From assembly GCA_001938485.1 (NCBI GenBank), contig MQRK01248175.1, positions 1-57,376 on the forward strand: a stretch of DNA of 57,376 nucleotides, in the 5' to 3' direction. The position numbers and the translations under genes are program-made. This stretch comes from Girardia tigrina (taxonomy: Eukaryota). The first letter of the stretch is position 1. Every line of letters starts with the position of its first letter. Below are positions 400-55,540 of the stretch, piece after piece. Under the pieces are notes generated by a model that was not told the DNA's origin, ran no database searches, and saw only the letters and a list, made by a program, of their open reading frames with translations.

Positions 400-2100
400 C
401 CCTTTTTTAAATACATTCTGAGTTTCTAAAATAAAGTCTAGTATTCTATTCATGATCTTCGGAGCCAAGCCAATTCAAAACCAAATCGAGTTAATTGATA
501 TGAACAATCATTAATAACACTCGCTGATGTTCCCACAGATCTTTTTCAACATGTATCTGTAAGTATGCATTTTTTAGATCAATAATTTTACAATTTCCAG
601 ACATTTTTCTCTACTTGCGGAGCGATTCACTAACTGTTATTGTATCCATCGTGTGAGAATGAATAAACTTATTAACCTCCCTGAAATCCAAAACAGGTCT
701 TACCTTCCCTTTTGCTTCTTGTTTTACGCACATGAGAGGAATAATTCCATTCTTGTTTCTCTCAACTGGAACAAGTCATCCGTTATTAATCCATCTTTCC
801 AGTTCCTTAAATTACTCCTCCCTGCCTTCTTCACCCACCTTATATTGAGCCACAGTGTTCCGTAAAATTGGTTTTATGTCCTTCCCTTTCCATCTTACCA
901 CACATCGACTACCATCAAACATTGCTGTTAAGTCAACATCATCGATCACTGTGCACTCAAAAATATTTTTTCTACTCGCATAATCTATGACATGAAGATT
1001 TATCTTCTCATCTTGTTTGTTCGAATTCCATGACACATTGCCATCTACATAAATTTCAATACCTCCTAATTTCTTTATCAAATCCATTTTGAAAATCGCA
1101 TTAACACAAGGTACTAGTTTATTCATCACTAAAATATCTCTATTTACTCTTTTTCTTCCTACGGTTACTTCAACATTAACTTGCATTTTATACACTACTT
1201 TTATTCCACCCACTCCAGTGACCAATCCTCCTTTTTCGTTAATCTCTCCACAGCATACTTTTCTCTCGATCATACTCACATGCTGCCAGTATCTATCAGT
1301 GCCTGGACCTTTATACCATTTATCCAAGCACTCAAAATTAGTAGCGTCTGAATTATAATAGGAGAGCCAGTGACGCCTACAAATCTCCATTGTAGTTTAA
1401 ATTATTGCAATTGCTTGCAGAATGGCCCGGTTGACCGCAAGTATAGCATTTAGCAAAAGATGTTTTATATAGGCGCCCTTCATCCACCTTCTCGACACCG
1501 TTATTGGACTTTTGTGACCTTTCTTGGGGAGCGTTCTGCCACGAACGTTTCCCATCACTTCCTGGTGGCTGTCGAACATCATCTCGAATCAATTTATTGT
1601 CCTTGCTATTCCTGATGGCCAAAACAATTTTTTCTCGATTTTCCCTTAAAAATACATCGGCCTTACTGGCAATACAATCTAAACTTATCTTTGAATATTC
1701 GATCAAAGTTTGTATTTTTTCCTTCACATTCGACGGAAAAGAGCGGATAAAAAATAACCTTATTGTATTTTCGTCGGTAATGCGACACTTTGAGCATAAG
1801 AGCTTTATATCACTCAATAAACTCTGGGCACTTTCATCGCCGTTCCATTTTGTTTGCTTAAATTCATCAAAAACTTCCACATCATTTTTTTGAAACATTT
1901 CTTTCTATGCCGATTCGATTTCATCGATATCGCATTACCGCGATTTATCTAAATTAACCCAGACATCATATGCATTACCTTCTTGCAACATTGACATAGC
2001 TTTAGCCAAATCTATGACTTTAGCCCGATCGAGCCACTTCTCAATATCCTCTTCTTCATTGTACTGTTTAACATTTTTAATCAATGTCTTCATCTTGACT
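400..2100 (-). mobile_element. Truncated, degraded LTR retrotransposon (gag, protease, N-terminal RT)
   Basis: Gag has a CCHC knuckle CYTCGQPGHSASNC (ORF 1377-1898). Protease ALIDTGS lies in the -1 frame. RT motifs KVRPVLDFREVN, IDLKNAYLQI and LAPKIMNRIL are broken by stops and frameshifts. Homologous to the element at 22135-25750. Confidence 0.85.
1344..1401 (-). promoter_or_regulatory. Programmed -1 ribosomal frameshift signal (gag/pro)
   Basis: In-frame U_UUA_AAC (plus 1395-1401), 6-nt spacer, stems GGAGA/UCUCC and GCGUC/GACGC in H-type pseudoknot order. The -1 frame reads KLQWRF...VQALIDTGS. Confidence 0.75.

Positions 2101-13149: not shown

Positions 13150-13193
<44 letters not shown>
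13150..13193. repeat. (TA)n microsatellite
   Basis: Direct observation; abuts a Tc1/mariner TIR. Confidence 0.95.
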
Positions 13194-13221: not shown

Positions 13222-13387
13222 TGTGATATTAAAATGAATAATTAAAAAAAGCAGGATTAATTATAATTGAATATTTGTTTTAATATTCGATGTAATGTAG
13301 TAGTTTTACAAATATATATATTAATCGTCAATTGCATTTATTGAATTTTGGTTATCATATTATTAATATTATTGTCATAATATAACA
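13222..13387 (+). repeat. 5' LTR
   Basis: TGTGATATTAAAATG...ATAACA; few differences from 18264-18425. Confidence 0.95.
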
Positions 13388-13403
13388 TGGCGTCACGAGC
13401 AGG
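13388..13403 (+). promoter_or_regulatory. Primer-binding site, probably tRNA-Ser
   Basis: TGGCGTCACGAGCAGG immediately follows the LTR. It is complementary to a tRNA ending CCUGCUCGUGACG-CCA, which resembles metazoan tRNA-Ser(CGA) 3' ends. Confidence 0.75.
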
Positions 13404-13419
13404 TAAGAATAATTTTTTG

Positions 13420-14917
13420 GACGAATTTCTCTTTAGGGAAAAAGAAACAAAACTTTTCGTTTACAAAAAACATTCTGCAAGTTCAACCGCAATCAAGGAG
13501 CACGTAAAAAAACGTTCAAGAGTTTGTTAAGTTATTCACATTTGGTGAAAATGAAAGGAAGGAGGAATAGCAATTATTCCAGAAATATTTCGACGAGAAA
13601 ATTAACAAAGAGATTCAAAGTGATCCATCCTACAATCACGAATCGGAGAATATCGAGGACTATACTCAACGACTTTTAAAAATGTTGGAGAAGAAAGAAT
13701 CCAAAATAAGCAACATCAGACTTTTGTTCCAAATTACCCAAACAAAAAACGAAAACATCAGTGACTATGCCAAAAGAATACGCATAGGAAATCTTGGAAT
13801 AAAGGAAATAAAAGAAGACATAATGATTGAAGCCTTTTTGGAAGGTTTGACATATAGGACAATGGCAACGATCGTCCGTCTTTTTAAACCAAAATCACTT
13901 GAAGAAGCAATCGATCTTATCAAAGATTAATAACAGCCAACAAGACTCGTCGATGACGACCAAAATCTTTATTATATGAAACACGATCGGGAACATATAA
14001 AACAGTTAAAACTCTAAAACGAGAAACTGAAGAACGAGATCATTCGACTAAAGGCGATAATAGCGAGAACAAGAAATAAACCGCAATACAAACAATACGA
14101 GTCTAGATACGCAACTAAAGACATCCAACCATATTCAGGGGAGAAGAGAACGTGTTTTAACTGCAAGAAGATAGAACATATCGCTAAATTCTGCAAGGAA
14201 CGTAAATGCTATGGGTGCGGATCGACAAATCACGTTCTTCGAGACTGTAGCATCAAACGATTAAGATATTTCCAAGAAGAAGAAGAGATTTTGAGCGATG
14301 GGCCACCGGAGACGGAAAATGTCACATCAGAGGACAAACAGATTAATATGATTCATGGATCGGGATGTAGTAAAGAAAAATCGAAGATGATTTTCAACAA
14401 AAAACCAACGTTGGAGGAAGCATATAGCAATTACATTAACAACCACGGAGCACGTCCGAGAAAAAATTTATATAAATACGAACCGACATTAATATCGGAA
14501 TCTAGACTAGAGAAAGCTAGAAACAAACCAATCGTGCGGTGCAACACAGCGAATATGCCAGTGAAGGTTATGTTTGACACAGGTGCTGATCTTAATGTCA
14601 TTAGCCATGAGTTAGTTGATAAGATACGAGAACGGAATCCAGCAGTAAAAATTGACGACTCAAGAACTAAAATCACATGCGCAAATGGTACTACGGAAGA
14701 GTGCATTGGAAAAGTTCAACTAAATGTGGCAATCGGACCATATATTACAGCTCATGTTTTTGATATTATGCCAAAGATATTTCCTCACATTTTCATCGGA
14801 TTGAGAAGTATAAAGAAATATGAGATAAAGGTAAATGCAGGAGAGGACTGTATTGAAATACAGAATATGAAGATACCATTTATCTCGAAGACGATCACCG
14901 CAGAGTCTTTAAACTAA
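13420..14917 (+). pseudogene. gag: Gag-protease ORF1 (a few in-frame stops; start approximate)
   Basis: One reading frame joins the capsid-like QTKNENISDYAKRI, two CCHC knuckles (CFNCKKIEHIAKFC, CYGCGSTNHVLRDC) and the aspartic protease MFDTGADLN. It ends AESLN*. Confidence 0.9.
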
Positions 14918-14968
14918 GTGGGTCCGCATTGAGGAGTCGGAATGCGGGATACAGCCAGATAGAGACTC
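14908..14968 (+). promoter_or_regulatory. Programmed -1 ribosomal frameshift signal (gag-pro/pol)
   Basis: In-frame U_UUA_AAC 14908-14914 directly before the ORF1 stop. Stem CCGCAUU/AAUGCGG (14924-30/14941-47); loop GAGUC can pair with GACUC 14964-68. The -1 frame is the pol frame. Confidence 0.8.
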
Positions 14969-17900
14969 AGAATACTGAATTATACAGAATTATCGTATCA
15001 GAGAATATTAATACGTGGGGTGCTGCTGACTATTTTATCAAGGCTATGCTAGTAGACAATCACAATGAGAAGAAAAGAGATGAAAATAGATAGTTTATTT
15101 TTACGGGAGAAAAAGAGAAGCTCAGTGAAAAGGGACTGATGGCAATGGATAGTCTTATCAAATGCGACGATGGAGATGTATGGGTCAGATTGACTAACAT
15201 TGAAGGAGAAAATATACAGATTCGAACGGGGATGACGTTGGGGTATGCAGAGGTATATCAGGAGGACGAACAAATGGCAGAAAAAAGATCAATCTATAGC
15301 TTATCAAAGGAGAACCAGAAGAAAGAGGAAACTGCAATAGAAGAAATTCTGAAAAGCATTGAGGATAACATGAATGAAGAAAACAAGGATGCAAAGAAGA
15401 ATCTAATGGAAATTATACGTGTTAATAAAGAGATATTTAGTACATACCAATTGGATATTTGGAAAAGTGATCTAACAAAACATAGGATAGAAACTGAAGA
15501 CGAGAAACCGATTAACTTCAAACCCAGAAGTATACTCGTGGGGCTAGAACAGGAGGTACAAATAATGATCGAAGATATGGAAAAAAGGGAATTATAAGAC
15601 AAAGTACGTCTGCATGGAATTTCCCGGTAGTAGTAGCTAAGAAAAAGAACGGAGAGATTCGACTATGCGTATATTACAGGGCCCTAAATGCAAAGACAAA
15701 TCGTCCGATATTCCCAATCTCATCGTCAGAGGAGATTTTTGATAGTATTGGAGGATCCAAATACTTTTCAACACTTGATCTATCGAGCGGATATCACCAA
15801 GTACCAGTGGCAGAGGAAGATATACTAAAGACAGCGTTCAGCACCAGACACGGTCAATACGAGTTTGTAAGAATGCCATTCGGGTTATGTGGAGCACCAG
15901 CAACTTTCCAGAGATTGATGAATTTAATATTAAGAAAAGAGAACTNNNNNNNNNNNNNNNNNNNNNNNNNNNNNNNNNNNNNNNNNNNNNNNNNNNNNNN
16001 NNNNNNNNNNGGAAATGGTACTATCAAGAATAAAACATGCTGGGTTAAAACTAGCCCCAACAAAATGTAAGTTTATGGAAACAGAAATAAAATACTTGGG
16101 TCATATAATTAATGAACAAGGTGTGAAAACTGACCCAGATAAAATCAGTAGCATCAAAGAATGGAAGATACCCGGTTGTAAGAAAGAGTTACAAACATTC
16201 TTGGGGTTTTGTAACTATTACCGAAGGTTCATTAAAGACTACGCCACAATGTCCAGTTCCTTAAGCTCGATGTTAAAAAATGATTCCAAATTTATGTGGA
16301 CAGAAGAAACGAAAAGTATGTTCTATAAACTAAAAGAACAATTAACACAACCTCCAGTATTAGCCCTACCAGTGAAAGACGGTAAATATATTCTAGATAC
16401 AGACGCATCACACGATACGATTGGTGCAGTATTATCACAAGTACAAAATGGAGAAGAAAGAGTTATTTACTACGCATCGAAAACATTAACCAAGAGCCAG
16501 AAACAATACTGTATAACACGAAAGGAGCTACTAGCAATCCATACATTCGTTTTAAAATTCAAGCACTATTTAATCGGGTCACATTTTCTCGTCAGAACGG
16601 ATCACTAGGCACTAAAATGGCTCTTAAACTGGAATAGTCCAAACACATCACAGTACTGTATTTGGAAATCGGAACTTGAAATATTCGATATGGAAATAGA
16701 ATTCAGGAAAGAAAAGGAACACAAAAATGCAGATTCACTTTCCAGACCAGCACCATGTGAACAGTGCGCCATTTCACACGAAGACCCAAAAAGAAAAAGA
16801 AATGTAAAAGAATTTCATTCGGTGCACAACACTAGTGACAAAACTCGTAGCGAGTATTCGGAAAAAGTCGTCAATAAAATACAGGAACACGGTGACAGCA
16901 GCTACAACGAATGGGAGCAGGAGAAAGATGAGAAGTTAAGGAAGTTACTAAACCAAAAAAATAACAAAGATGAGATGAGAAGATACCAGTCCAACGGATA
17001 CGAGGTCAGAATTCGGGGTGATATAATATACTTGTTCAAAGACGGGATATATAGGGTAATGGTTCCAAAACATAAAAGAATGGAGATTATATGGAACCAC
17101 CACAAAAAATTGGGGCACCCAGGATTAGAAAAAAACTATCGAAGCCATCTCAAGAAAACATTGTTGGTGGAAAATGGCAAATGACATAAAAGAAACGCTG
17201 AGTAAGTATACACCTTGCATTCGAAACAAGGACATCAATAAAAGAATCAGGGCACCGTTGCAGAACTCGGTCACTAAAAAACCATTCGAAGTTATTGGAA
17301 TAGACATCACGGGACCTTTTAACAGAACAAGAAAAAGATACCGATACATCCTCTGGGTCATTGACTACTTCTCCAAATATATATGCCTAATACCGATGAA
17401 GACAATAACAGCAGAAGAGGTGATTAAAAAGTTATGGATCCACTGTATATCCAAATTCGGTATTCCGGAAATAATACATTCTGACAGGGGTACTAATTTT
17501 ACCTCGAATTTATTTGTTGAACACTGCCGAGCACTGGGAATCGAAAAAACACATACCTCATCATACTACCCACAAAGTAATGGATTAACAGAAAGATTGT
17601 TCAAGACTATAAAACCTATGATCAGTGCAGTAATGGAGGAAAGAAATATTCTATCCTGGAGTGAAGCACTACCGTTCGTAGAACTGGGAATACGAACGAC
17701 AAAACAAAAAACGACAAATTACTCTCCATATGAAGTACTTTTCGGACACAGACCACGGATTGATTTCAATTACCCCGAATACTTCACAGACACGGAATAT
17801 CGCAGCACAGAGGAATACGTAAATGAAATGAGACGGAAGATAAAAATTATACATGAAAACATCGAGAAAAATGCACGAGAACAAAACGAAAAAGATAAAG

Positions 17901-18247
17901 AGAGATATGATAAGAACCGATGGAGTACAAGATTGAAAATAGGACAGATGGTAATGATCAAGAACCAAGGAGCACAGGGGTTTGAAAGCAAATATATCGG
18001 ACCGTTTATTATCAAGAGAATTATTAACAACTGGACATTCATTCTTTATCACGAAGGGACTAATAAAGAAATTCAGCGAAACTACAATCAGATTAAAGAG
18101 CTAAAAAAAGGCAAAGTACAGAGCGAGAAAACAAAAATCCAAACCAGTATACGAACATGGAAATGGAAGAAGAGCGACCCGATACAGAGCAATGAGAGAA
18201 GGTACCCGACCAGAAGTACGAGAAACCCAACACCAGTATACAAATGA
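14911..18247 (+). pseudogene. pol: Pol (spacer, RT, RNase H, integrase), disrupted by a few stops/frameshifts and an N-gap
   Basis: RT: KTAFST, RMPFGLCGAPATFQR, FLGFCNYYRRFI. RNase H: LDTDAS, RKELLA, RTDH. Integrase: HKKLGHPG, IDITGPF, IDYFSK, SDRGTNF, SNGLTER, YIGPF. Confidence 0.95.
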
Positions 18248-18263
18248 TTTTCAAAGAGGGGAT

Positions 18264-18425
18264 TGTGATATTAAAATGAATAATTAAAAAAAGCATGATT
18301 AATTATAATTGAATATTTGTTTTAATATTCGATGTAATGTAGTAGTTTACAAATATATATAATCGTCAATTGCATTTATTGAATTTTGGTTATTATATTA
18401 TTAATATTATTGTCATAAGATAACT
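18264..18425 (+). repeat. 3' LTR
   Basis: Copy of 13222-13387, preceded by a PPT. Confidence 0.95.
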
Positions 18426-18531
18426 TATAATTTAATATAATATAATTTATTCTGTTTAAATTTTGTTTCAGGTTTACGTTTGTTAAAAAAATTTTAAAAT
18501 TATTTTATTCTACGGGCCTTGAATTTTTATC

Positions 18532-19352
18532 ATGCCAAGATACACAACGGAGCAAAGAATATTTATGATCGAATCTTCAATAAAATTCAATAATTCATTT
18601 ATTTCTGTTCAGCGCGAATTTCAAAAGCGTTATAAAACTAAAAATGTTCCAGAGAGAAGAACAATTTTAAATATTTTAAATACATTTTTGACTTCTGGAT
18701 GTGTGGTAGATGTGTCAAGATTTGGGCGTCCTAAGATTGTGAGATCCAAAGAAAATATCCAACGCGTAGAAGAAAATGTTCAATTTAAACCAAGATTATC
18801 GACAAGAAAACGTTCGAGTCATCTGAATATTTCGATGACATCTCTTAGGCGAATTTTAAAAATTGATCTGAAAATGAAAGCCTACAAGATTCAGATCTGC
18901 CAAAAACTTCAACCGAATGATTTTCAGAAACGAGTTCTGTCAGAATTCTGCAAAAGGTGGTCGAAATTACAGATTTCATTGGCAAAATGATAATAACTGA
19001 TGAGGCTCACTTTTGGATGGACGGGTATATAAATAAGCAAAATTGGAGGTTTTGGGGTTCAGAAAATCCCATGGAGGTTATTGAACGAACTTCAAATCCC
19101 CAAAAATGCACAGTGTGGTGAGGTATTACTTCTGAAGCAATAATTGGGCCTTATTTTTTCGAAGATACTGATGGTCACCAAATCAATGTGAATGGAATAA
19201 GATATCGTCAAATGATCAGAAAGATAGTTTTACCATTCATCGAAAATAAACCAGATATGTGGTTCCAACAGGACGGGGCCACATGTCACACTGCAAATGA
19301 GAATATGAATTTGCTAAGAGATAATTTTGGTGAGAGAATTATTTGGAGATGA
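18532..19352 (+). pseudogene. Tc1/mariner (rosa-like) transposase, frameshifted and truncated before the third catalytic residue
   Basis: MPRYTTEQRIF..., GRPK, TDEAHFWMDGYINKQNWRFWGSENP, IIGPYFFE, WFQQDGATCHTA. Confidence 0.9.
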
Positions 19353-21524: not shown

Positions 21525-22135
21525 TACTGGTTGAGTGCAGTATGAATTCCGGCCGGGAAGAGGAACTTAGTTGGCTATAAGTATCTTTAGGAAATTACAG
21601 GAGGAAGTGCGATAAAAGGCCATTAATATGTATGTCATCTTTATTGATTTGAAGAAAGCATACGACCGTGTCCCGGGAGTCTCTCTGGAGCTATTTAAAG
21701 AGACTAGGGATAAGTTTGAGAATGTTAGAGATCATCAAAGCTTTTGATGAGGGATTCGAAGGTTCTATGGGGGTTGAAACCTTCAATATGGATAAAGGAT
21801 TGTCTCAAGGTTGTGTTTTAGGGCCGCTCCAGTTCAATATTGTATTCGACACGGTTATGAAAAGAGCAATATTGAACGGTATCTCTGGAGGAGTGATGAT
21901 GAAACATGAAGACGGAAGCTTCCTTGAGATCAACAAACTAACCTATGCTGACGACCTCAGCCTGATTGACATGGACTGGAATAACTTGATAAATAATTTG
22001 AACATTTTAAATGCATTCCTTTTAGATTTAGGTCTTAAAATTAACATCGGTAAAACCAAAGTTTTGAACCTAGACGAAGATACTGTGATCTTTACTGCTG
22101 GGCACGAGCTTTCTCGATGCGCCGATCGCATCTCA
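21525..22135 (+). mobile_element. RTE-type non-LTR retrotransposon RT fragment
   Basis: QYEFRPGR, FIDLKKAYD, GLSQGCVLGP, LTYADDL, GLKINIGKTKVL. High similarity to 40250-40860 on the minus strand. Confidence 0.9.
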
Positions 22136-25100
22136 ACGTTTTTCCTCACTTCGTGATCTGAACGAAACCGAACTGATTCTGACGGTGCATGCCGCACGTG
22201 GATGACGTGATACATCCTCCCGTCTACTTCAACTTGATGTACTAATTGCGTCCTCGTGACTGTTCCGCGCTTCCACCACGACATGCAGCTGACTGCTGGC
22301 GCCGGTTTTACGAACACCACGTCCCCGACTGCCAGCTTTGTTGGTGGTGGATAATGCTGCGATCCCGGCTGTGCTTGATTGAAAGCTTTTGACAATGGTA
22401 ATCTTCTCTTTTGCGCAAAAACCGTCGACGCCGGAATTACTCCCTTTGCATTTGAGGTCGCGTTGTACCACGCAACCATCTCTTGGGCGGCTCTGTCGCT
22501 TCGAGCGACCATTCTCTTGATCTTTCGGTGGTTGCGTTCCACAATGCCATTGCCACTTGGTCAGTTTACGCATCGAAATCGGACCTCGATTCCGACCTAA
22601 GCAAAGAGCCCTGCCACACCCGATTCCCTGCAGGTGCTATAATTATCCAAAAAAAATTCATCTGGTGAGCCAAACCCGTTCCACCCGCTGTTCATAGCTG
22701 CACATATGTCCGGTTCGCTCTCCGATGCGATTTGGCGCCATATTGCAAACCAACGAAGGTCGCAATAGACCATTGTGAGGAATTTTTTGTTCCGACATGT
22801 GAAACGTCTACCGCGAAACGCTGCCATGTTCTCTTCACTCCCAGTTCTCCCTCATTCCAACGCACTGGCGACAGGTCGATTGAAGCACGTGGCTGGGAAT
22901 CCTTTATGACCGCATCGATCTGCTGTTCCGAGACCTTCTTGGGTCCCCAAATCTGCCTGGCTAGGATAGTGGTTCGTCGAACACCGAAGTGATTAATTTC
23001 ATGGAGCTTTTTAAGAACACCGACCGATTACTGCGACTCATCTGAAGAAACTGTTTCTGCTGCGGCTATTCTTTTTGCCATTGACCACCAATTGGCTAGG
23101 AAGCGAGTCAATACGTTCACTTTATTTTTCCTCGAGCGAACGAGTGTGACCGACACGCTCATCCGTTCCTCATCAACCACTTACTTGAACAGGTTGACTC
23201 TCCTCCTGATCAGCACCTCACTGAAAGCCTGAATTTTTATCGGCTCCGACGGGGATAGAGCAGCGTTGAGCCACTTATAGACTGTTACTGAATCTGTTAA
23301 AAGCTCAAATTCGCACATACCTCATTTTGCTACTTCCTTGAGCACCCGATTTGCTGCCTCAAGCTCTGCGAGATTGATGTGGTTGCTATCTTCTTTTGGG
23401 TGAAGCCAGCAGGTATCCTCGATCACCGACCCGTTTATTTCGACTCTAATGCAGACCGTGATTGAACTGGCGTCATACCATATTCGCTACCTTCCGACTG
23501 GCGGCACCTCCCAAACACCACGGATTGGATCATCTGATTTAACCCGTTCATATAGATGCTATAAAATCTCGGACACGTGTGGTTCCACCGGGGCGTCCCA
23601 GTCAGTATCGCTGGCGAGCCATTTAACGACACTGCATACCGGTCACAACCATTCGCACACCGGATAGTGGCCCACCAATCTTTTGGTCAACGCAAAAAGA
23701 CTACGCTGTATAAGGCCTTCCGGCAGTCTTGGGATACTCTCGTCCCGCTGCCACTGCAAATGTCCGTCAGCTCCCTTTTTAACTGCCAGCCCCAAGACAC
23801 GACCACTGTCAATGGCTATTGTGGGTTTTGCTTCCAGCCGATATTTCTTCAGCACAGATAAGAGGTGCTCTACCGAGACGTTCGCGGTGTTTATCACGAT
23901 GTCATCGTAGGTTGCATCGGTGTTGGCTTGCACCAATGGGCCGGATTCCAATACATGCATCAGGACCTTCTGCATGATTTTTGGTGCAATACTTAACCCG
24001 AATCCGAGTCGAGCTGAGTACCACGATCGGCCCTCATGATGTAATACTTGGTATGCCCACAATGATTGATCCACCTTGATCTCTGAGATAGGCACGCAGT
24101 AAGTTCACTATCGCTATTTTGCGTCCAATGCGGCGCCAATTCCGTAGTTTCTCTGCGAATACTACACTCCACGCGGTTTGGCTGGAGATTGAATAATTCC
24201 AGTTCCGGTAGTCAAGGACCGGTCGGACCTTCTCCTTCGCCTGTTGCATGACCGCCATTAGGGGCAGTGACGGTCGTCGTGGACTCTGGCATTCCACTAA
24301 CCACCCATTTGATTTCCACTCTTTTAATTCTGAATTTACTTCGGCTTGATGCTCTCTGACCGATGAATATTCTACCACGCTGTTGTGCACTGGAGGGGCT
24401 CGCCCTTCCTTCCAGTGCCACCGCACCATCCAGAATTCACCGTCAAAATCTGTGGTAAAATCTGTCTCCGAAATCTGAATTGCTGCCTACTGTCTGACGG
24501 CCCTCTCCCGATTTGAATCAACCGTCATCGCTCCGACGTGTGACGACAGTACTGCTACCGTCGGATTCTACCGGTCGATCTCTCCCAAGCCTGGATTCTG
24601 ATTGGAACCGGTTGATCCACCCGGATTGAACGTTGGTTCCGCTTTGCTTTTCCCGACGGAAACACCTCCCAACATGGAAATCATGCCTATTCCCAGCAAC
24701 ATATCCGCGCCTATTACACTCAGGTTACGGACAAGCAGGACCCAACACCGCATCTGGTACCCGAACACGCTGACATCCACCTAGGCCCCGAATTTAATCA
24801 CTATCAGATACTGGTTCCGCGTGATTCTCCGGAACCAACCACTGGTTGATCATAGACATCGAACACCCGGTATCCACCAGTGCTCTCACGGCTTTCACCT
24901 CAACTCGGACTTCGACTGTGGGTAGATGCGCAACATAAACCGCAGACCCCTCACCCACGCAACGATGAGGGCCTGCTAGTCTTTTCCCGGACGCTGCTGG
25001 CGGCGTGGGCATTCAACACAAAAGTGGTCTGCTAAATCACAGATGAAGCAATACCTCTGCTTGCCATTGATGGTGGATTGAACCAATTGTTCGTTCTCCT

Positions 25101-25750
25101 TTCGGCTCCGCTGCCCGCAGCCCCACCGGTTGTAGTTCGAGTGATGCGCTCGATATCCGCGATTTTTGCATTTTGTCGCCGCCGCCGTCACGTTTGCCGG
25201 TCAACTGTTCCCATGTCCATTATCATCGGAAGCCAAAGATGACGCCATCGTAGTCGCGTCCCTTATCCCTTAGTTCCTCAAACGGAAATTCTTTCCTTAC
25301 CGCTTCTGTCGATATATGCTTTGCAATCTCGTCCGGTAGACCGCACATAAAGGTGTGTCTCAGAAAAACTTCCTGGGGCGCTTGCCCCTGACAAACCGTT
25401 GTCGCGAGATGTCGCAGATCAGATGCGAATTCTTCAACTGCTTGGTCAGGTCGAAGATATCTCGAACGGAATTCTGCATACGCCTCTCTCGAGTCAGGAC
25501 TGTAGGCTCTCAGTAGCACTTCCTTGACCGCCTCGTAGCAGCCCTGCTTTCCGCTCGGTAACCCGGAAAACAGCTCAAACGCTCGTTCCTCGAGCAGCAT
25601 TGGCAGAGCAACCACATTTTCAATGTCGCAAACGGCTGCCGTCGTCTCGAATTTGCGACACCATTCTGCAAAATTTCCAGATCCATCGAATAACCGGACT
25701 GCATCCGTGAATTTTATTCGATTCATAAGCCGCGATAGCCTGACGAAGAC
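22135..25750 (-). mobile_element. GC-rich LTR retrotransposon body (gag-PR-RT-RH-IN), degraded; no paired LTRs recognised
   Basis: Gag 25223-25726 and knuckle CFICDLADHFCVEC; PR ALVDTGCS; RT VRPVLDYR, RLGFGLSIAP, TYDDI; RNase H WYDASS, HINLAELEA, LTDS; integrase FLTMV..RWFAIW, PDEFFLDN, ERNHRKIKRM. Confidence 0.9.
24918..24988 (-). promoter_or_regulatory. Programmed -1 ribosomal frameshift signal (gag/pro)
   Basis: In-frame G_GGA_AAA (plus 24982-24988), 5-nt spacer, ~11-bp stem GCAGGCCCUCA/UGAGGGGUCUGC, loop GUGGG pairing with a downstream CCCAC. The -1 frame is the protease ORF 24794-25012. Confidence 0.75.
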
Positions 25751-27450
25751 CTGAACAAAAATATATTTTAAATAATTCTGTCATTACACCAACTATTAAT
25801 TTAAACAAACGGATTTATTAATAATTTAATAAATCCATATAAAATCACATCACAATAGGTAATCATCAAAATAAGTTCAATAATTTTATAAAAGAAGCTT
25901 TAATCAAATAATATTTTCAAAATATTAAATTTGCGTTCACATGACTCAATAATATATGTGTATTATTTTTGTGATTCAAATTAATCAAATTCATTAAAAT
26001 AATTTTTAGTATTTTTACCAGATATTTTTGTTTTTTTTGCTGTTAGTTTTTTTGTTGTACTAGTGGAAAATTTAATAAATTTTTAATAATACAATAAAAA
26101 AAGCGGCATTTAAACAAAGATTTTTGACACTTTTTCAAATATAACATATTTTTCCCTAAAAAAATATTATTTGTTTTAATAATTGAAAAATAACCAATGC
26201 CTATCTGAAAAGGAAACGGGAAATACGATCAATCAATAATAATTAGATTGATGCACAAAACACATTGCATGAATAGTTATATGATTATAATAATTTTAAT
26301 TTTCATTTGTTTTGTTTAAAACAACAAAGTTAATTTAATATTAATTTGATTTTTCATTTGATAAAACGTTTTATCATAATTAGAAAAAAAATAATTTTTT
26401 AAATAGTATTAAAAATTATTTTAACTAACAATTCGTTATGTAATATAAATTCACATTTAAATAATATATATGAGTAATAAATATTTTTATAATAAATTGA
26501 AAAATACAATAAATGAAATGTCCTCTCTTTTGAGTACTCCGACCCTCGTAACGGTCTATGGTGGGATCTTTCAATTTCCCCAATTCAAATTATTGACGCT
26601 TTTACGTCGCCAATTACAGCCTTTCTTCGGTAGCAAAATTACCACTTTCGGCTATCTGTTTGATGACGCTAAGCGTCACTTGAAGCAGAGCAAACAATTT
26701 GGGAAACTCTGGGTAACTGCCGTCGCATTGTTAACGAATTTTTCATTTGTTGTCGCCTTTACTGCCACAGCTAGCATCTGAACGACATAAATTGTCATTG
26801 CTAGCTTTACCTCCAGTTTTAAACACTTATTTAGCTCCTTTAAAAAAGAAATTTTCGCAATATTCATAAAGATATGGCACTCGCCTGAACTACACGACCT
26901 GGCAATAACACATTCCCCAAGATTCAGTGCATGATTTTTGTCTAATAATTATACTGAATTCGAACACGGTTTCATTGTCCTGAAGCAGCTGCACTTGGCA
27001 GGACTACAACAAGCAACAGATATTCTTGATACTATTCATTATTTCAAGTTTCTCCCCTTGCGGAAATGTAAAAATGTAGTTACATTTTACTCAACTGCCT
27101 AACAACTGCCTAACATTTCTTTTGCTTTTTGAGCCACTGCAATTAGAGAAATCGTTGATTGTCCCGAGTTCTCATATCCACCTGCTTTTTACTCCAGATA
27201 TAACTTAATGTTAATTTCTTCTTCGAGTAATGATGTCGATTGTCAATTTGACTCATAATTGTATTATTGAAAACATTGCTGACCAAGACCTCCCGTTGAA
27301 TTGTAATCCAAAAAAGAGGCCGGTACGTCTAATTCTTTCTCCATTTATACCAATTTTTACTGTTTTATCTAAGAAAACTAGACCCATTGGGGCTCTTCTT
27401 GGAAATTTTCATTCTAAATAAATTTTCCACATTCAAAAAACTGCAGTTAA

Positions 27451-35895: not shown

Positions 35896-37238
35896 CAGGG
35901 TGAGTCAGAAGTCACTGGACAGTCATTATATTAGTGATCCAAGTGTACAAAAATGAGTTTACATCGATCAGTCGGTTGATATCTTGGTGTAAACTCACTA
36001 AGAAGATCATGTGAACACATCTTACAAATAGTCCATTTAAGTCAATAATTTCATATTTATAGTCGATAATTTCATCATTTAACAAACCTTAAAAATGGCA
36101 GAGTCAAATAATTCCAAACTAATAACTGAAGAATGCGTATTTCTCATAAAAAAACATTTTATAAAACGGACAACGAAAGTGAAATATGTAGACGATTCCA
36201 AGAAAAATTTGGTAGGGCGGTTAAAAGAGACACAATAGCGAATCTAATTTACCGCTTTGAAATAACTGTTTCCTGTGAAGATCTTCCTAGATGTGGTAGA
36301 CCTAAATCTGTTTGCAACTCTGAAAAAAGACAAATTATTACATATAATTTTACAAATAGTCCTCGAAGATCCACCAGACGAGCATCACAAGAGCTTAGCA
36401 TTTCTCAAACTTCCATTGTCAGTCTGCTGCACGATGTTCATTTAAAACCTTACCATCCACATTTACTCCACTCCTTGAATGAAGATGATTATGACCGTCG
36501 AGTTGAATTCTCTCAGATTTTTCAACAACTTTGCCATGAGGACGCTACATTTCCAGAGAAGATTATTTGGAGTGATGAGGCAACCTTCAAGCTTAACGGA
36601 CAGGTCAATCGTCACAATTCTGTTTACTGGGTCCATGAAAATCCGCACGAAATCCTACAAAAAGAAGTCAACGCAGTTGGTGTCGCAGTTTGGATTGGAA
36701 TCACTGCTTCCGATCTGGTAGGGCCGTTTTTCTTTGAAGGTTCTGTGACAGGTGATAGTTACGTGTCAATGCTTAACAATAATTTTATACCAGTGTGAAG
36801 AACTGGCCGCTTGGGGAGATGTGGTTTCAACAAGATGGTGCATCTCCCCATTACAGCATTGTAGCGCGAAACTGGCTCAAGGACAACTTTCCAAACAGAT
36901 GGATTGGTCGCCGCGGTTCGATCGAGTATCCTACTCGCTCCCTAGATCTTACTCCTCCTGATTTCTTTATATGGGGTCTGTTATAGAATTTAGTGTATGC
37001 CAAAAAGCCGGAAACAATAGATCAACTTGTGGCAATGATAATGAATTCTTGTACAGAAATTAGTGATGATTTATGCCGAAGTGTTTGCTATTCTGTCGTT
37101 CGAAGGACTGCAAAATGCATTGAAGAAGGCGGCCAACATTTTCAGCATTTACTCCATTAGATTGTGTAATTTTAATGTAATAATAAATTAAATTTTTAAA
37201 ACCTGTCGTTTTGACTGCCCGGTGACTTCTGACTCACC

Positions 37239-39300: not shown

Positions 39301-42065
39301 TCTTACTCGATCTAGTTGACTATGATTGTTCACTAATCCGTGTTTGGAGATGAGGATTTTTCTCTCCCTTGTGGGCTTCCAATCTCTTTCGAATGGTATT
39401 GAACCTCTAGGCTGTATAGAGGGTCCACCAAAACTCAAATGTTACTAGTAGCCCCCGAAATGCCTCCTATGGAGTTGATTAGTTTCGGTCTCTGATATCT
39501 TTTCGGCTTCCCTGTAAGAAACGGACACCTATTGGTTGTATATCCATGATTTTGTATGCCTTAGGCTGTATTCGTTGACTTATTTCAACTGCGAAGGAGA
39601 CATCTGTACTCTCTTCTTGCTGTGAGATCTGCAATCCTAAAAGTCAGTTGTGTTTCCCAGTACCTATCGCTTCCTCCACGCCCGTGGAGTTATTCGGGGC
39701 GTCAATCACGGATTGAATCTGATTACCTGGAATGTTAAAGTTTTCTTCAACTCTTTTTCTGTGTTACTTGTTATTATCATTGTCAGTACTCCAATTTCTT
39801 CTGTCAACGCCAATTTATGATCTCGCTTAAGGTGCCTGGTCAGCCACCTTTTGTTTTAAATGGTTTTTTACAATGGTAATTGTTGTTGTTGTGTCTCGTT
39901 GAGCTCATCAGGATTAGCGGAAGAGGAAACAAATGTGGGGGTCCAATGTCCAGGATGTCCATATGGATCTTTTCAATCTTGTTTTTCTTCCTAAATATGC
40001 GCGTGCATAGGTTATGAAGGGCATGTAATTTCTTAATGTTCTTATCCGCAGTTCTCCAGGTTTCACAGTCGTAGTAGACTACGGAGAATATAAATGCGTT
40101 GATAACTTTTTTCTTATTCCTCATACTCAGTTTGGAACTCTTCAGCACTGGTCTTAGTTCCCTGATCTTCTGGGTTCCTTTCTTGATTCTTTCCTTACCT
40201 TTCAGGTCCACGTTGCCTGCTGAAGAAACCGTGTATTCTAGGTAACGAAAACTAGAGACCCGATCAATACCGGCCTCAAACTGGTGCCCAGTAGTAATGA
40301 TCCGATTATCTCCGTTTAGGTTCAAAACTTTGGTTTTACCGATGTTAATTTTGAGACCTAAATCTAAAAAGAATGCATTTAAAATGTTCAAATTATTTAT
40401 CAGATTGTTCTAGTCCGTGTCGATGAGGGTGAGGTCGCCAACACATACTAGTCTGTTTATCTCAAAGACGCTTCCGTCTTCATATTTCATCATCATTCTT
40501 CCAGAAAGACCGTTTAATATTTCTCTTGTCATCACCATGTCGAATACATTATTAAACAGGAACGGCCCTAAAACACAACCTTTATGCACATTGTAGATTT
40601 TATTCCTCATAGAACCTTTAAATCTCTCGCGGAAAGCTTTGATGATATCCAACATTCTCCACTTTATCCCTAGTCTCTTTAAACAGCTCCAGGGAGACTC
40701 CCAGAGGACACTGTAGAATGCTTTCTCCAATTTGATAAAGATGACATACATATGAATTTCCTTACATCGCGCTTCCTCCTATAATTTCTTAAGGATACTT
40801 ATAGCCAACTGAGTTCCTCTTTGTGGCCGAAATCCATACTGCCACTCATACAGTATCACTTCGATGATCGGAGTGACTCAGTTTGCGATGATTCTGACCA
40901 GAATCTTTCCTCCTACATTTAATAAAAAATGCCTTGGTAGTTATTTAGATCTTTTCAAGAGTATTTACCTTTGAAGAAAATCACAACTTTAACCTCTCTC
41001 CAACTTCATGTGAATGCCTCTAGTCTGTTCCATTGTCCTTAAAGCACTCTTCCAGTAGGGTTAGTATTTTCACACACCCCCGCTTATAGATTTCATGGAT
41101 CAATCCATCAGATCACGCGTCTGTCCCACTCTTCTTCATTGTCTCCTCTACTTCCTCTCGCGTCGGAGGAGAATCCAAATCATCGAGATTCGGAATGTCT
41201 CCAGCAAAACATCCGTCCTTTCCTTCTGATCCAATGGGCTCTAAAAAAATTATTGAAGTGGTTAGTCAGCTCCGTGTTCCTAAAATGGTTCGAGGGAGTA
41301 CACAACGTGTTCTCCTTCGATTGTGATTTACGGAGAATACGAAGTTCCGTCGTGAGCTCCTTCAGTTTTCCTGCTCCGTCATTGTTGAGTATATTATTGA
41401 TTTGTTTCCTAAGAGCCTCGACTCTTTCACGTTTCCATCTTCTGATATTCTTCTAGTGAAATATTCTGCTAGTCTTTACACCTAGAAAAAGTGTCGTTGT
41501 TTCTATTCCTCACAAAGTCTCGCCCATTTTTCTCCAGTGAGTATCTTTAGATCCTCTAGGTTAACATGTATCCACTTTTTATTCGAGAGAGTTTGCTTTG
41601 ATCTTGTGCTTGCTCTCCGGACCACATTGCACATCGTTTGTAGACTTCCAATCGGTACCTTAAAATTGAACATGTGTAAATGTTTCGATTATCGTTTCTT
41701 TTTTCTTCATGATTGCTTCTCGATCCGGTATCTTGTGTTTGCGCTTGTTTTTGTTGGTTCTAAGCCTCTGCGGTCTTCTTCCTCCCTCTCGGACTCAGGC
41801 AGTTATAACTACCAGATCGTGGCCAAAAATAGTCGAATCCTGGATAGCTTTGGATGTCAGTGTACCTATTAGATCGATTTTTTTCAATAAAAAAGAGATC
41901 CAATAATGACCTCCTAGATGTTGCTGCGTGAATCCAGCTTGTTATCTGGATAAGCTTTTTCCTATAAAAGGTGTTTTCAATACGCAGTTCAAATAATATC
42001 GCCATCTCTGTCAGCAGCTCTCCGTTCTCCGACATCTTCACGTTCTCCAATGTAAGAGTTTTTAC
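39300..42065 (-). mobile_element. RTE-type LINE, 5'-truncated, degraded (partial APE, RT, C-terminal zinc fingers)
   Basis: APE: ENGELL, ENTFYRKK, LDLFF. RT: QYGFRP, KGCVLGPFLF, GLKINIGKTKV, SFRYLE, YDCETW. C2H2 remnants at 39815-39872 and 39530-39602. Confidence 0.9.
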
Positions 42066-53999: not shown

Positions 54000-55540
54000 G
54001 TTATCAAAAAGACAAAAAAAATATATCGGAAATCATATTATGCTACCAGATTTAATGAAAGAGTTACAAATCGTTAGATGAGAATGTCAGGAATGCATAC
54101 GCAGAAAGATTCCAAGCGAAAAAACAAAAGAAAAGTTGATTCCAATAAGAAGTGACGAGGTTTTAGAGCAAGTCTTGATGTACATCGCATATGTAGGTAA
54201 CAAGAATAGCATGTAACCATATTTATTGGTCAAAGTGGATCAGTTTTCGAAATTGGTCTCTTTGACAGAGATTAGAACTCAAAACGAAGACACCATAGTT
54301 CAATGCGTGTTGATAAAATGGATATATAGATTTGAGAAGCCAGAAACAATATTAACAGACAATGGAAAATGTTTTACTGGCGAAAAATGGAAAGAATTTC
54401 GCAGGAGATGCGGAATCGAACAACGATTTAGTAGCCCATTTCAACATCAATCAAATGGGCTACCAGAAAGAAATTTTCTAACAGGGAGAGACATGATAAT
54501 AACAAACAGAGGAGACATAGACAAACAATCATGGTGGCAAATTATTCCAAAGATAGAGGTCTGTCTAAATGCAACGGTCCAGAGTACGACCTGATATTCG
54601 TCTTTCGAAGTTGTGTTTGGTAGAAAAATAAACTTACATGCGGCAGCAGGAATATCTAAAACTGAAGGGAGGAACGCGATCAAGATGAAGGTAAGAGAAA
54701 ATTTAGGGAAAGCGGCAAAACGAATGGAAAATTGTGAGAGAGAAAAGAAAACAAATCGACATTTTGAAGATAGTCAGAAGGTCTTTGTAAAAATATATCC
54801 CACAAAAAACAGAGAATGAACACTTTCCCATTCGATGGACCGTATCATTTTACAAGATATATATCGCCACACCAATTGGAAATACAGAATCTGAAAGATA
54901 GAAGCTTAATTCGTCGAAGGATTGAGTGGATTAAGAAAATTAAAAACGAATTATAAAAGAGGGTAAAATTGTGATTAGTTATTAATTTGTTTAGGTATTC
55001 TAAAAAGATTTTAAATATTAAATATATTCTACTTGTTTAAATTATGACTTCTGAATTGAAACATGGAAATTTAACTTGTTTTTATTCTGTTAGTTCTGAA
55101 ATGAAAATTATTTTTAAGAAAGAGATTAAGTCGGTAATAAGTTGTTGTTATTGAAGGAAGATTTCTCGATCCATTTCGAATGAATTGCAGTAAGTAGAGT
55201 ATTAGTTTTTGGTATAATTTTTAATGAAATTTTAGTTTTTCGCTGGAAGCCAATCAAGATAAAATTAATATAAGTATTGGTAGTTAGCAGGAGAGAGCAT
55301 ACGTGTCGTATAAAGTCTAGATACTAAATTAAAGCTGAGGCTGGATTCGAATTGACATTCTAGATGTAAAATAAGATTTATAAGTATTTCAATACCATTA
55401 AAACCCTGTAATGTATTAGCCTACTTATCATAGCTGGTAGATTTAGGAAGCCTGTATAAGTAATCTTTGTCTTTGTAAAGTGCTGGATCTCATTAGTCTG
55501 AAATATAAGGTTGTTGCAATGCTATTTTTTGGCGATTGAG
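54000..55540 (+). mobile_element. Ty3/gypsy integrase fragment, PPT and probable 3' LTR
   Basis: CQEC, VKVDQFSK, ILTDNGKCF, SNGLPER, DGPY; purine tract aaaagaggg then TGTGA at 54970. LTR end uncertain. Confidence 0.8.

Follow-up and report, generated by a model that had tools for sequence, protein, structure and literature searches.

In Rous sarcoma virus gag-pol, a pseudoknot-stimulated -1 shift makes Gag-Pol (PMC5009743, PMC3542737; papers are cited, here and below, for excerpts of their text). A -1 gag/pol arrangement was reported for 28 of 51 animal long terminal repeat (LTR) elements, with pseudoknots for PEG10 and PNMA3 (Ma3) (PMC5009743), and in the general scheme for Ty3/gypsy elements with a gag/pol overlap the protease (PR) usually heads the second open reading frame (ORF2) (PMC3587641). 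Other layouts are those of the plant Ty3/gypsy element Ogre (Tat), in which ORF1 (GAG-PROT) and ORF2 (reverse transcriptase, RT; RNase H, RH; integrase, INT or IN) are spliced, the GAG-PROT first ORFs of some plant groups (both PMC6317226, whose Additional file 5 tabulates plant ORF layouts), and single-ORF elements, which obtain all domains from one product (PMC2582038). A dUTPase lies between protease and RT in bdelloid Juno, Vesta and TelKA and in basidiomycete gypsy elements (PMC5408684). The stretch analysed here (the window) is 57,376 nucleotides (nt) of Girardia tigrina DNA (assembly GCA_001938485.1, contig MQRK01248175.1, positions 1 to 57,376, forward strand). It contains, at 13222-18425, a decayed Ty3/gypsy element with LTRs, the protease frame of which ends at U_UUA_AAC. 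Judged from this decayed copy and its relatives, -1 ribosomal frameshifting at the heptamer, with a predicted H-type pseudoknot behind it, very probably yields Pol in this lineage.

By this mechanism most ribosomes would terminate at UAA, giving Gag-PR. A minority, stalled by the predicted downstream pseudoknot, would slip by -1 at U_UUA_AAC and make a Gag-PR-dUTPase-like-RT-RH-IN polyprotein. Every Gag would carry a protease, with RT, RNase H and integrase rationed as in Rous sarcoma virus, and the protease would release the domains inside the particle. A wider reading, towards which we incline only slightly, is of a deep, undescribed Ty3/gypsy lineage of more than 100 families, defined by an alpharetrovirus-style strategy that arose independently, in which Gag-PR is the main product and a knot-driven -1 shift leads to a Pol that starts with a dead dUTPase fold; it would use one conserved knot geometry and many non-canonical slip sites. 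The literature searched (excluding Gao et al. 2003, Repbase and GyDB) yielded no description of Ty3/gypsy elements that shift by -1 immediately behind the protease, and no such junction appears in the excerpts of PMC8556966, PMC6238403, PMC2774666, PMC5911963, PMC3587641 and bioRxiv 10.1101/2024.11.28.623418.

The gag-pol junction in the window copy and its relatives

The protease domain is complete upstream of the slip site. The heptamer is phased T_TTA_AAC relative to the protease frame and runs directly into the stop, as a first-pass annotation made from the letters alone had read it. The first stem (S1) pairs CCGCATT (14924-14930) with AATGCGG (14941-14947), and the second (S2) pairs GAGTC (14934-14938) with GACTC (14964-14968), 16 nt past S1; both were found where that annotation had placed them. 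The predicted knot has loops of 3 nt (L1), 2 nt (L2) and 16 nt (L3). From 14908 the -1 frame is open up to a TAG at 15091 and then on to 15595, and past the UAA the zero frame has more stops at 14930 and 14960. In canonical -1 programmed ribosomal frameshifting (PRF) the stimulatory structure usually follows a spacer of 5-9 nt. The sequence contains the canonical elements of -1 PRF: an in-phase heptamer, an open -1 ORF and a predicted structure after a 9-nt spacer. The first-pass description of the -1 frame as open from the slip site, interrupted by one TAG and in register with an ORF at 15139 also stands, except that this ORF is spacer and not RT. The RT core of the window copy lies in a different frame after a break near 15580.

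Canonical heptamers occur 26 times within the window element, and a heptamer alone is of little significance. Of the 4790 positions of the window element, a single one, at the junction, has the fixed two-stem geometry; of the 5157 positions of the metagenome element L132, three have it, and one of these is the junction of that element. No Rfam family was found at the junction (best E 1.1). In lineages A-E, described below, the 6-nt spacer between stop and S1 can pair with L3, with differing sequences, lengthening S1 downward; this may be an alternative conformation.

A genome search for copies gave 404 candidates, of which 40 were scored and 30 fetched (window copy included). TTTAAAC was present in 29 of the 30, with TAA next in 28. 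The DTG motif was in frame with the slip site in 22 of the 24 copies long enough to reach it, and the register up to position 15000 was kept in 29 of 30. The stop at 14915 was shared by 27 of 29 other copies. Stops 13928, 13931 and 14015 of the window copy were private (0/11, 0/11 and 0/12 other copies), and the intervening TAG at 15091 was seen in only 1 of 28. Copy L018 has a -1 frame without stops along 361 of 361 codons, across the RT motifs. Since the copies are 95-98% identical, their sharing of the junction is evidence of inheritance, not of selection. A genome-wide scan with a slip-stop-stem-start pattern gave 340 matches, against 66 for a control pattern. Contigs over the junction were also taken from four sequencing runs (three studies; runs containing less than 0.1 of the words were left out), and none of the indels shown, with five rows unlisted, falls within 14274-15579. 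The break is not a copy-specific indel, as the first-pass annotation had allowed it might be: slip site, stop and frame break are common to the copies, to sister families and to L132.

A leaf-litter metatranscriptome (run X1) contained a 5077-nt contig over window positions 13272-18343, a near full-length relative; DNA carry-over is possible.

Five further lineages, making six with that of the window, were obtained from searches with distant proteases and from a scan of metagenome contigs. Their protease identity to the window is about 90% (A2), 64% (D, L132), about 50% (B and C) and 29% (E). L132 has an unbroken 532-codon Gag-PR ORF and an unbroken Pol ORF of at least 1093 codons, with the same junction. 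Among 120 distinct junctions from the six lineages, the heptamer is kept in 110 and a stop (TAA, TAG or TGA) stands directly behind it in 117. The heptamer of lineage E is G_TTA_AAC, and G_UU as the XXX triplet is tolerated in equine arteritis virus (PMC3542737). The common spacing is stop, 6 nt, S1 (7), 3 nt, S2 (5), 2 nt, S1', 16 nt (13 in E) and S2'.

Both stems covary. When each lineage is represented by one copy, pairing holds in 41 of 42 cells of S1 and in 30 of 30 of S2 (71/72), compared with 15-21 and 0-16 in slid controls. Lineage E was scored by position, since MAFFT misplaced its 3-nt gap. Nine distinct rows without E have 98.1% of cells paired, with 4 of 12 pairs changed on both sides; their covariation score was reached by 0 of 500 shuffles and their count of pair types by 207 of 500. 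Between lineage E and the window, 19 of 60 bases agree upstream of the slip site and 27 of 40 from it onward, and a junction model built without this lineage detects its junction at E-values of 0.008-0.11 (three of five loci given).

Extent of the clade and the domain behind the proposed shift

A protease profile was searched against 1.84 billion representatives (50%-identity library), yielding 161 clusters at E <=1e-30 and 3134 up to 0.001. The best 150 of these 3134 relatives were examined further, and all 150 end 0-35 residues past the protease match. An [LEGKVP]N dipeptide, as encoded by X_XXA_AAC-type sites, was present in 133 of 147 tails (background mean 48, maximum 62), and 48 tails end in N where about 11 were expected from all 150. 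EN was the commonest slip dipeptide (43/133); VN, PN and GK were also seen in the protein tails (P0031-P0173), implying many non-canonical heptamers. Of 30 tails that read on in the zero frame, 27 have the GV/GA reading of the loop six codons past the slip dipeptide, as do lineages A and E. Every match of at least 440 residues has a knuckle (94/94), and 78 of the 150 relatives have two.

On the Pol side, the best 120 matches were compared with the protease profile: none of the 107 unnamed proteins matches it, and 2 of the 13 NCBI-named, more distant ones do. A tree was computed from 70 of 134 RT rows. The 54 group rows, including lineages A-E, form one branch (SH-aLRT 100, stem 0.65), and the 13 NCBI-named rows and L134-L136 fall outside it. 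K02A2.6-like and other NCBI-named RTs were outside the clade in this quick tree, which had no curated Mag reference among its rows. The K02A2.6-like rows are presumably linked to Mag. Relatives with the same layout, for which the first-pass annotation had suggested an RT and protease phylogeny, were obtained clade-wide from the protease search and the RT tree. That the layout extends through a clade, and that a dUTPase-like fold comes behind the shift, were points absent from that annotation.

Among metagenome contigs, one clade member and four distant loci were found; in three of the latter, L134-L136, the protease frame reads on into the spacer, and RT shares that frame. No relative was found among viral contigs, and the ESM Atlas gave generic gag/protease clusters only (score <=0.90). 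Four contigs with apparently fused long gag-pol frames were rejected as artefacts of N runs. L212, L215 and L216 share a stretch with a 20-nt primer-binding site (PBS)-like sequence and no intact gag-pol behind it; at L216:580-920 there is a fragment of a distant protease, which ends close to an A-rich run and is not followed by RT.

The domain behind the shift was modelled from the first 180 residues of the L018 -1 frame; one of five models reached a pLDDT of 70 (70.7). All top 20 VIA matches to this model were dUTPases, dCTP deaminases or herpesvirus proteins with a derived fold (best Z 8.5, rmsd 3.4, 96 aligned), and all Foldseek rows listed were of dUTPase type (best E 1e-3). Of the 120 Pol proteins, 73 match a profile of the domain, and no NCBI-named one is among them. 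For dUTPase catalytic motifs 2, 3 and 4, 0 of 107 Pol proteins match any, and the spacer domain gave no match to Pfam dUTPase. A TPR_20 Pfam match on the spacer after the slip site was below the cut-off. Lineage E (L167:2498-2800 and other loci) keeps the cassette and lacks the domain, with RT about 100 codons earlier, so the domain is dispensable. It is probably a relic without enzymatic function.

Alternative routes to Pol

Pol could be made separately, by reinitiation, internal initiation or from a subgenomic mRNA, with the structure serving that or packaging. An AUG lies 25-48 codons into the -1 frame in lineages A-D, and gene callers give an M start to 90 of 107 Pol proteins. However, the called starts are scattered from about codon -18 to +71, with V or L in 17 of 107, and this route would not account for the conservation of an in-phase heptamer located 9 nt upstream of the stem. 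In all four lineage-E copies that were read over 200 codons (L168, L170, L174, L180), the -1 frame has no Met past the slip site, well into RT, so AUG reinitiation fails for this lineage, and a separate Pol was considered unlikely overall. Joining of Gag-PR to RT by splicing has a precedent in Ogre, where the ORFs are split in the same way and an intron is used (PMC6317226). Here, however, the ORFs overlap with no spacer region between them, and in a crude motif scan none of 5 lineage examples had an acceptor and 2 of the 5 had a donor-like site. Contigs of the four runs contained no joint skipping the junction, which is weak evidence; two of the runs were only guessed to be RNA. Splicing was considered very unlikely.

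The break could also be damage to a single gag-pol frame, in the window copy or inherited from one defective master. The window copy does have many other stops and frame breaks, but these are private (0-1 of 11-28 copies), unlike the 14915 stop, and the same break occurs in lineages down to 29% identity and is implied in 150 of 150 listed relatives. The search for longer fused gag-pol forms found none, itself weak evidence, and damage as the explanation was given almost no credence. Pseudoknot-driven readthrough of the stop, as in murine leukemia virus, would fit the order of stop, short spacer and pseudoknot, which is the arrangement of that virus (PMC3542737). But the stop varies between TAA, TAG and TGA, and in many relatives it lies well past the slip site. 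Since Pol is in the -1 frame and the zero frame stops again at 14930 and 14960, readthrough is excluded as a route to Pol; as an account of the junction it is extremely improbable.

The case for -1 frameshifting has weaknesses of its own. ViennaRNA, which does not model pseudoknots, recovers S1, and in some windows it pairs the 3' strand of S2 with the spacer; a spacer competing in this way would presumably sit inside the ribosome at the slip site. The structure was derived from the same sequences that were scored, in hand-picked and related rows, so the controls lean toward the structure and are not probabilities, and the -1 frame peptide could account for some of the stem conservation. DNA was read for six lineages, and for the other approximately 140 relatives the slip site was taken from protein tails, of which 14 of 147 have no xN dipeptide (GK occurs in several), while 3 of 150 were unparsed. 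Gag-PR and Pol matches were joined on one contig for L132 only, and the RT tree is a quick version without bootstrap.

Element anatomy and comparison with known systems

Features of the window element are listed below.

Features of the Ty3/gypsy element in the window (positions of the whole stretch)
Feature	Position	Strand	Basis or remark
5' LTR, TG...CA, about 166 nt	13222..13387	+	comparison with 3' LTR
ORF1, Gag-protease	13387..14914	+	broken in window copy: frame change near 13506, stops 13928, 13931, 14015
PBS-like sequence	13388..13403	+	directly behind 5' LTR, overlapped by Gag ATG
Capsid-like region, PF03732 (Retrotrans_gag)	13643..13852	+	Pfam, E 2.7e-05
Two CCHC zinc knuckles	14153..14248	+	Pfam PF00098, two stretches
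Aspartic protease, DTG 14576-14584	14534..14890	+	PF13975, PF13650; PF09668 positions 12-108 of 109
Slippery heptamer U_UUA_AAC and ORF1 stop UAA	14908..14917	+	TTTAAAC 14908-14914, TAA 14915-14917
Predicted H-type pseudoknot	14924..14968	+	starts 9 nt past heptamer
dUTPase-like beta domain, without catalytic motifs	14980..15255	+	start of -1 frame; TAG 15091 interrupts window copy
Reverse transcriptase	15639..16110	+	Pfam; frame break near 15580, assembly gap 15946-16010
RNase H	16297..16605	+	Pfam; stop at 16606 in window copy
Integrase (H2C2, rve core)	17062..18247	+	Pfam; frame break near 17129; pol end 18245-18247
Polypurine tract	18253..18261	+	just before 3' LTR
3' LTR	18264..18425	+	matches 5' LTR

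The LTRs, PBS, polypurine tract and PR-RT-RH-IN order fit Ty3/gypsy (Metaviridae). Among solved RTs, that of Ty3 was the best match (255 bits, E 1e-74), followed at 180 bits by 8r0s; foamy-virus-type Pr125Pol scored 127 bits, and retroviral RTs had E 1e-36 or weaker among the matches listed. The two LTRs, about 165 nt each, differ by three substitutions, two short gaps and the last base. The flanks of the window copy do not match, no target-site duplication was found, and the element starts 28 nt past a (TA)22 tract (13150-13193). No env-sized ORF was found between integrase and 3' LTR.

The primer for the PBS is, we assume, tRNA-Ser. No primer tRNA gene was found for it, the three matches being PBS copies of truncated elements. 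The Gag ATG (13387-13389) takes its first base from the end of the LTR and the other two from the start of the PBS, and the same start was seen in L057, L116, L123, L132 and L184. Long Gag-PR relatives begin with MAS (28/92) or MAT (8/92).

Capsid, both knuckles and the DTG protease do share one frame by Pfam, as the first-pass annotation had it, but in the window copy the capsid part is severed by the stops at 13928, 13931 and 14015. An unbroken 510-residue relative, P0002, is 96% identical across a 299-residue query from ORF1. The window copy is dead: in addition to these three stops it has stops at 15091 and 16606 and breaks near 13506, 15580 and 17129.

Elsewhere in the window, GC-richer LTR-type remnants lie at 21946-25780 (-) and 815-1904 (-), with gag-like, RT-like (YDDI) and integrase-like ORFs labelled by eye. 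Pieces that we take to be Tc1/mariner-like transposases and RT fragments like those of long interspersed nuclear elements (LINEs) are among 18523-19320 and 36130-36795 (+), 21653-22153 (+), 39843-40409 (-) and 54025-54636 (+); an integrase fragment is among the same stretches.

The position of a frameshift determines how much protease the particle has relative to RT. An entire metavirid clade arranged like Rous sarcoma virus would be an independent case for asking how capsids with a protease on each Gag avoid being cut too early. More than 100 related cassettes, with apparently fixed geometry and varied heptamers, would form a natural series for the rules of -1 frameshifting, and the junction would offer a clear way to classify these elements, the Pol of which carries no protease in annotations.

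The window element shares with alpharetroviruses a pseudoknot-stimulated -1 shift, predicted here, behind the protease. In alpharetroviruses such as avian sarcoma-leukosis virus (ASLV) the protease is the end of Gag. The window element differs from them in its lack of env, its Ty3-nearest RT, its compact 45-nt knot and the dUTPase-like domain after the shift. In PEG10 the protease heads ORF2; in this gene and in animal -1 elements the protease usually comes after the shift, whereas in the window element it comes before. Skipper of Dictyostelium reportedly changes frame between protease and RT, with three ORFs and readthrough between gag and pro. Skipper carries a chromodomain (PMC5911963).

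The ORFs of Ogre are about 274 bp apart and spliced, whereas those of the window element overlap at the slippery site. Protease at Gag stoichiometry, which the first-pass annotation had called unusual for a metavirid, is not unique, as it follows from Ogre GAG-PROT and from single-ORF elements; the -1 shift behind the protease is what is unusual. Juno, Vesta, TelKA and the basidiomycete elements have protease and dUTPase both in pol, whereas in the window lineage the shift lies between the two and the catalytic motifs are absent from all 107 Pol proteins. The CsRn1 clade is described with a CHCC knuckle and a tRNA-Trp PBS (PMC2582038), in contrast to the two CCHC knuckles and the different PBS of the window element. 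Two adjacent CCHC knuckles are a trait shared with the Mag clade, of which the rotifer members are without frameshift and dUTPase in the excerpts of PMC5408684. The feature is real, conserved and clade-wide, and is a variant assembled from known ingredients.

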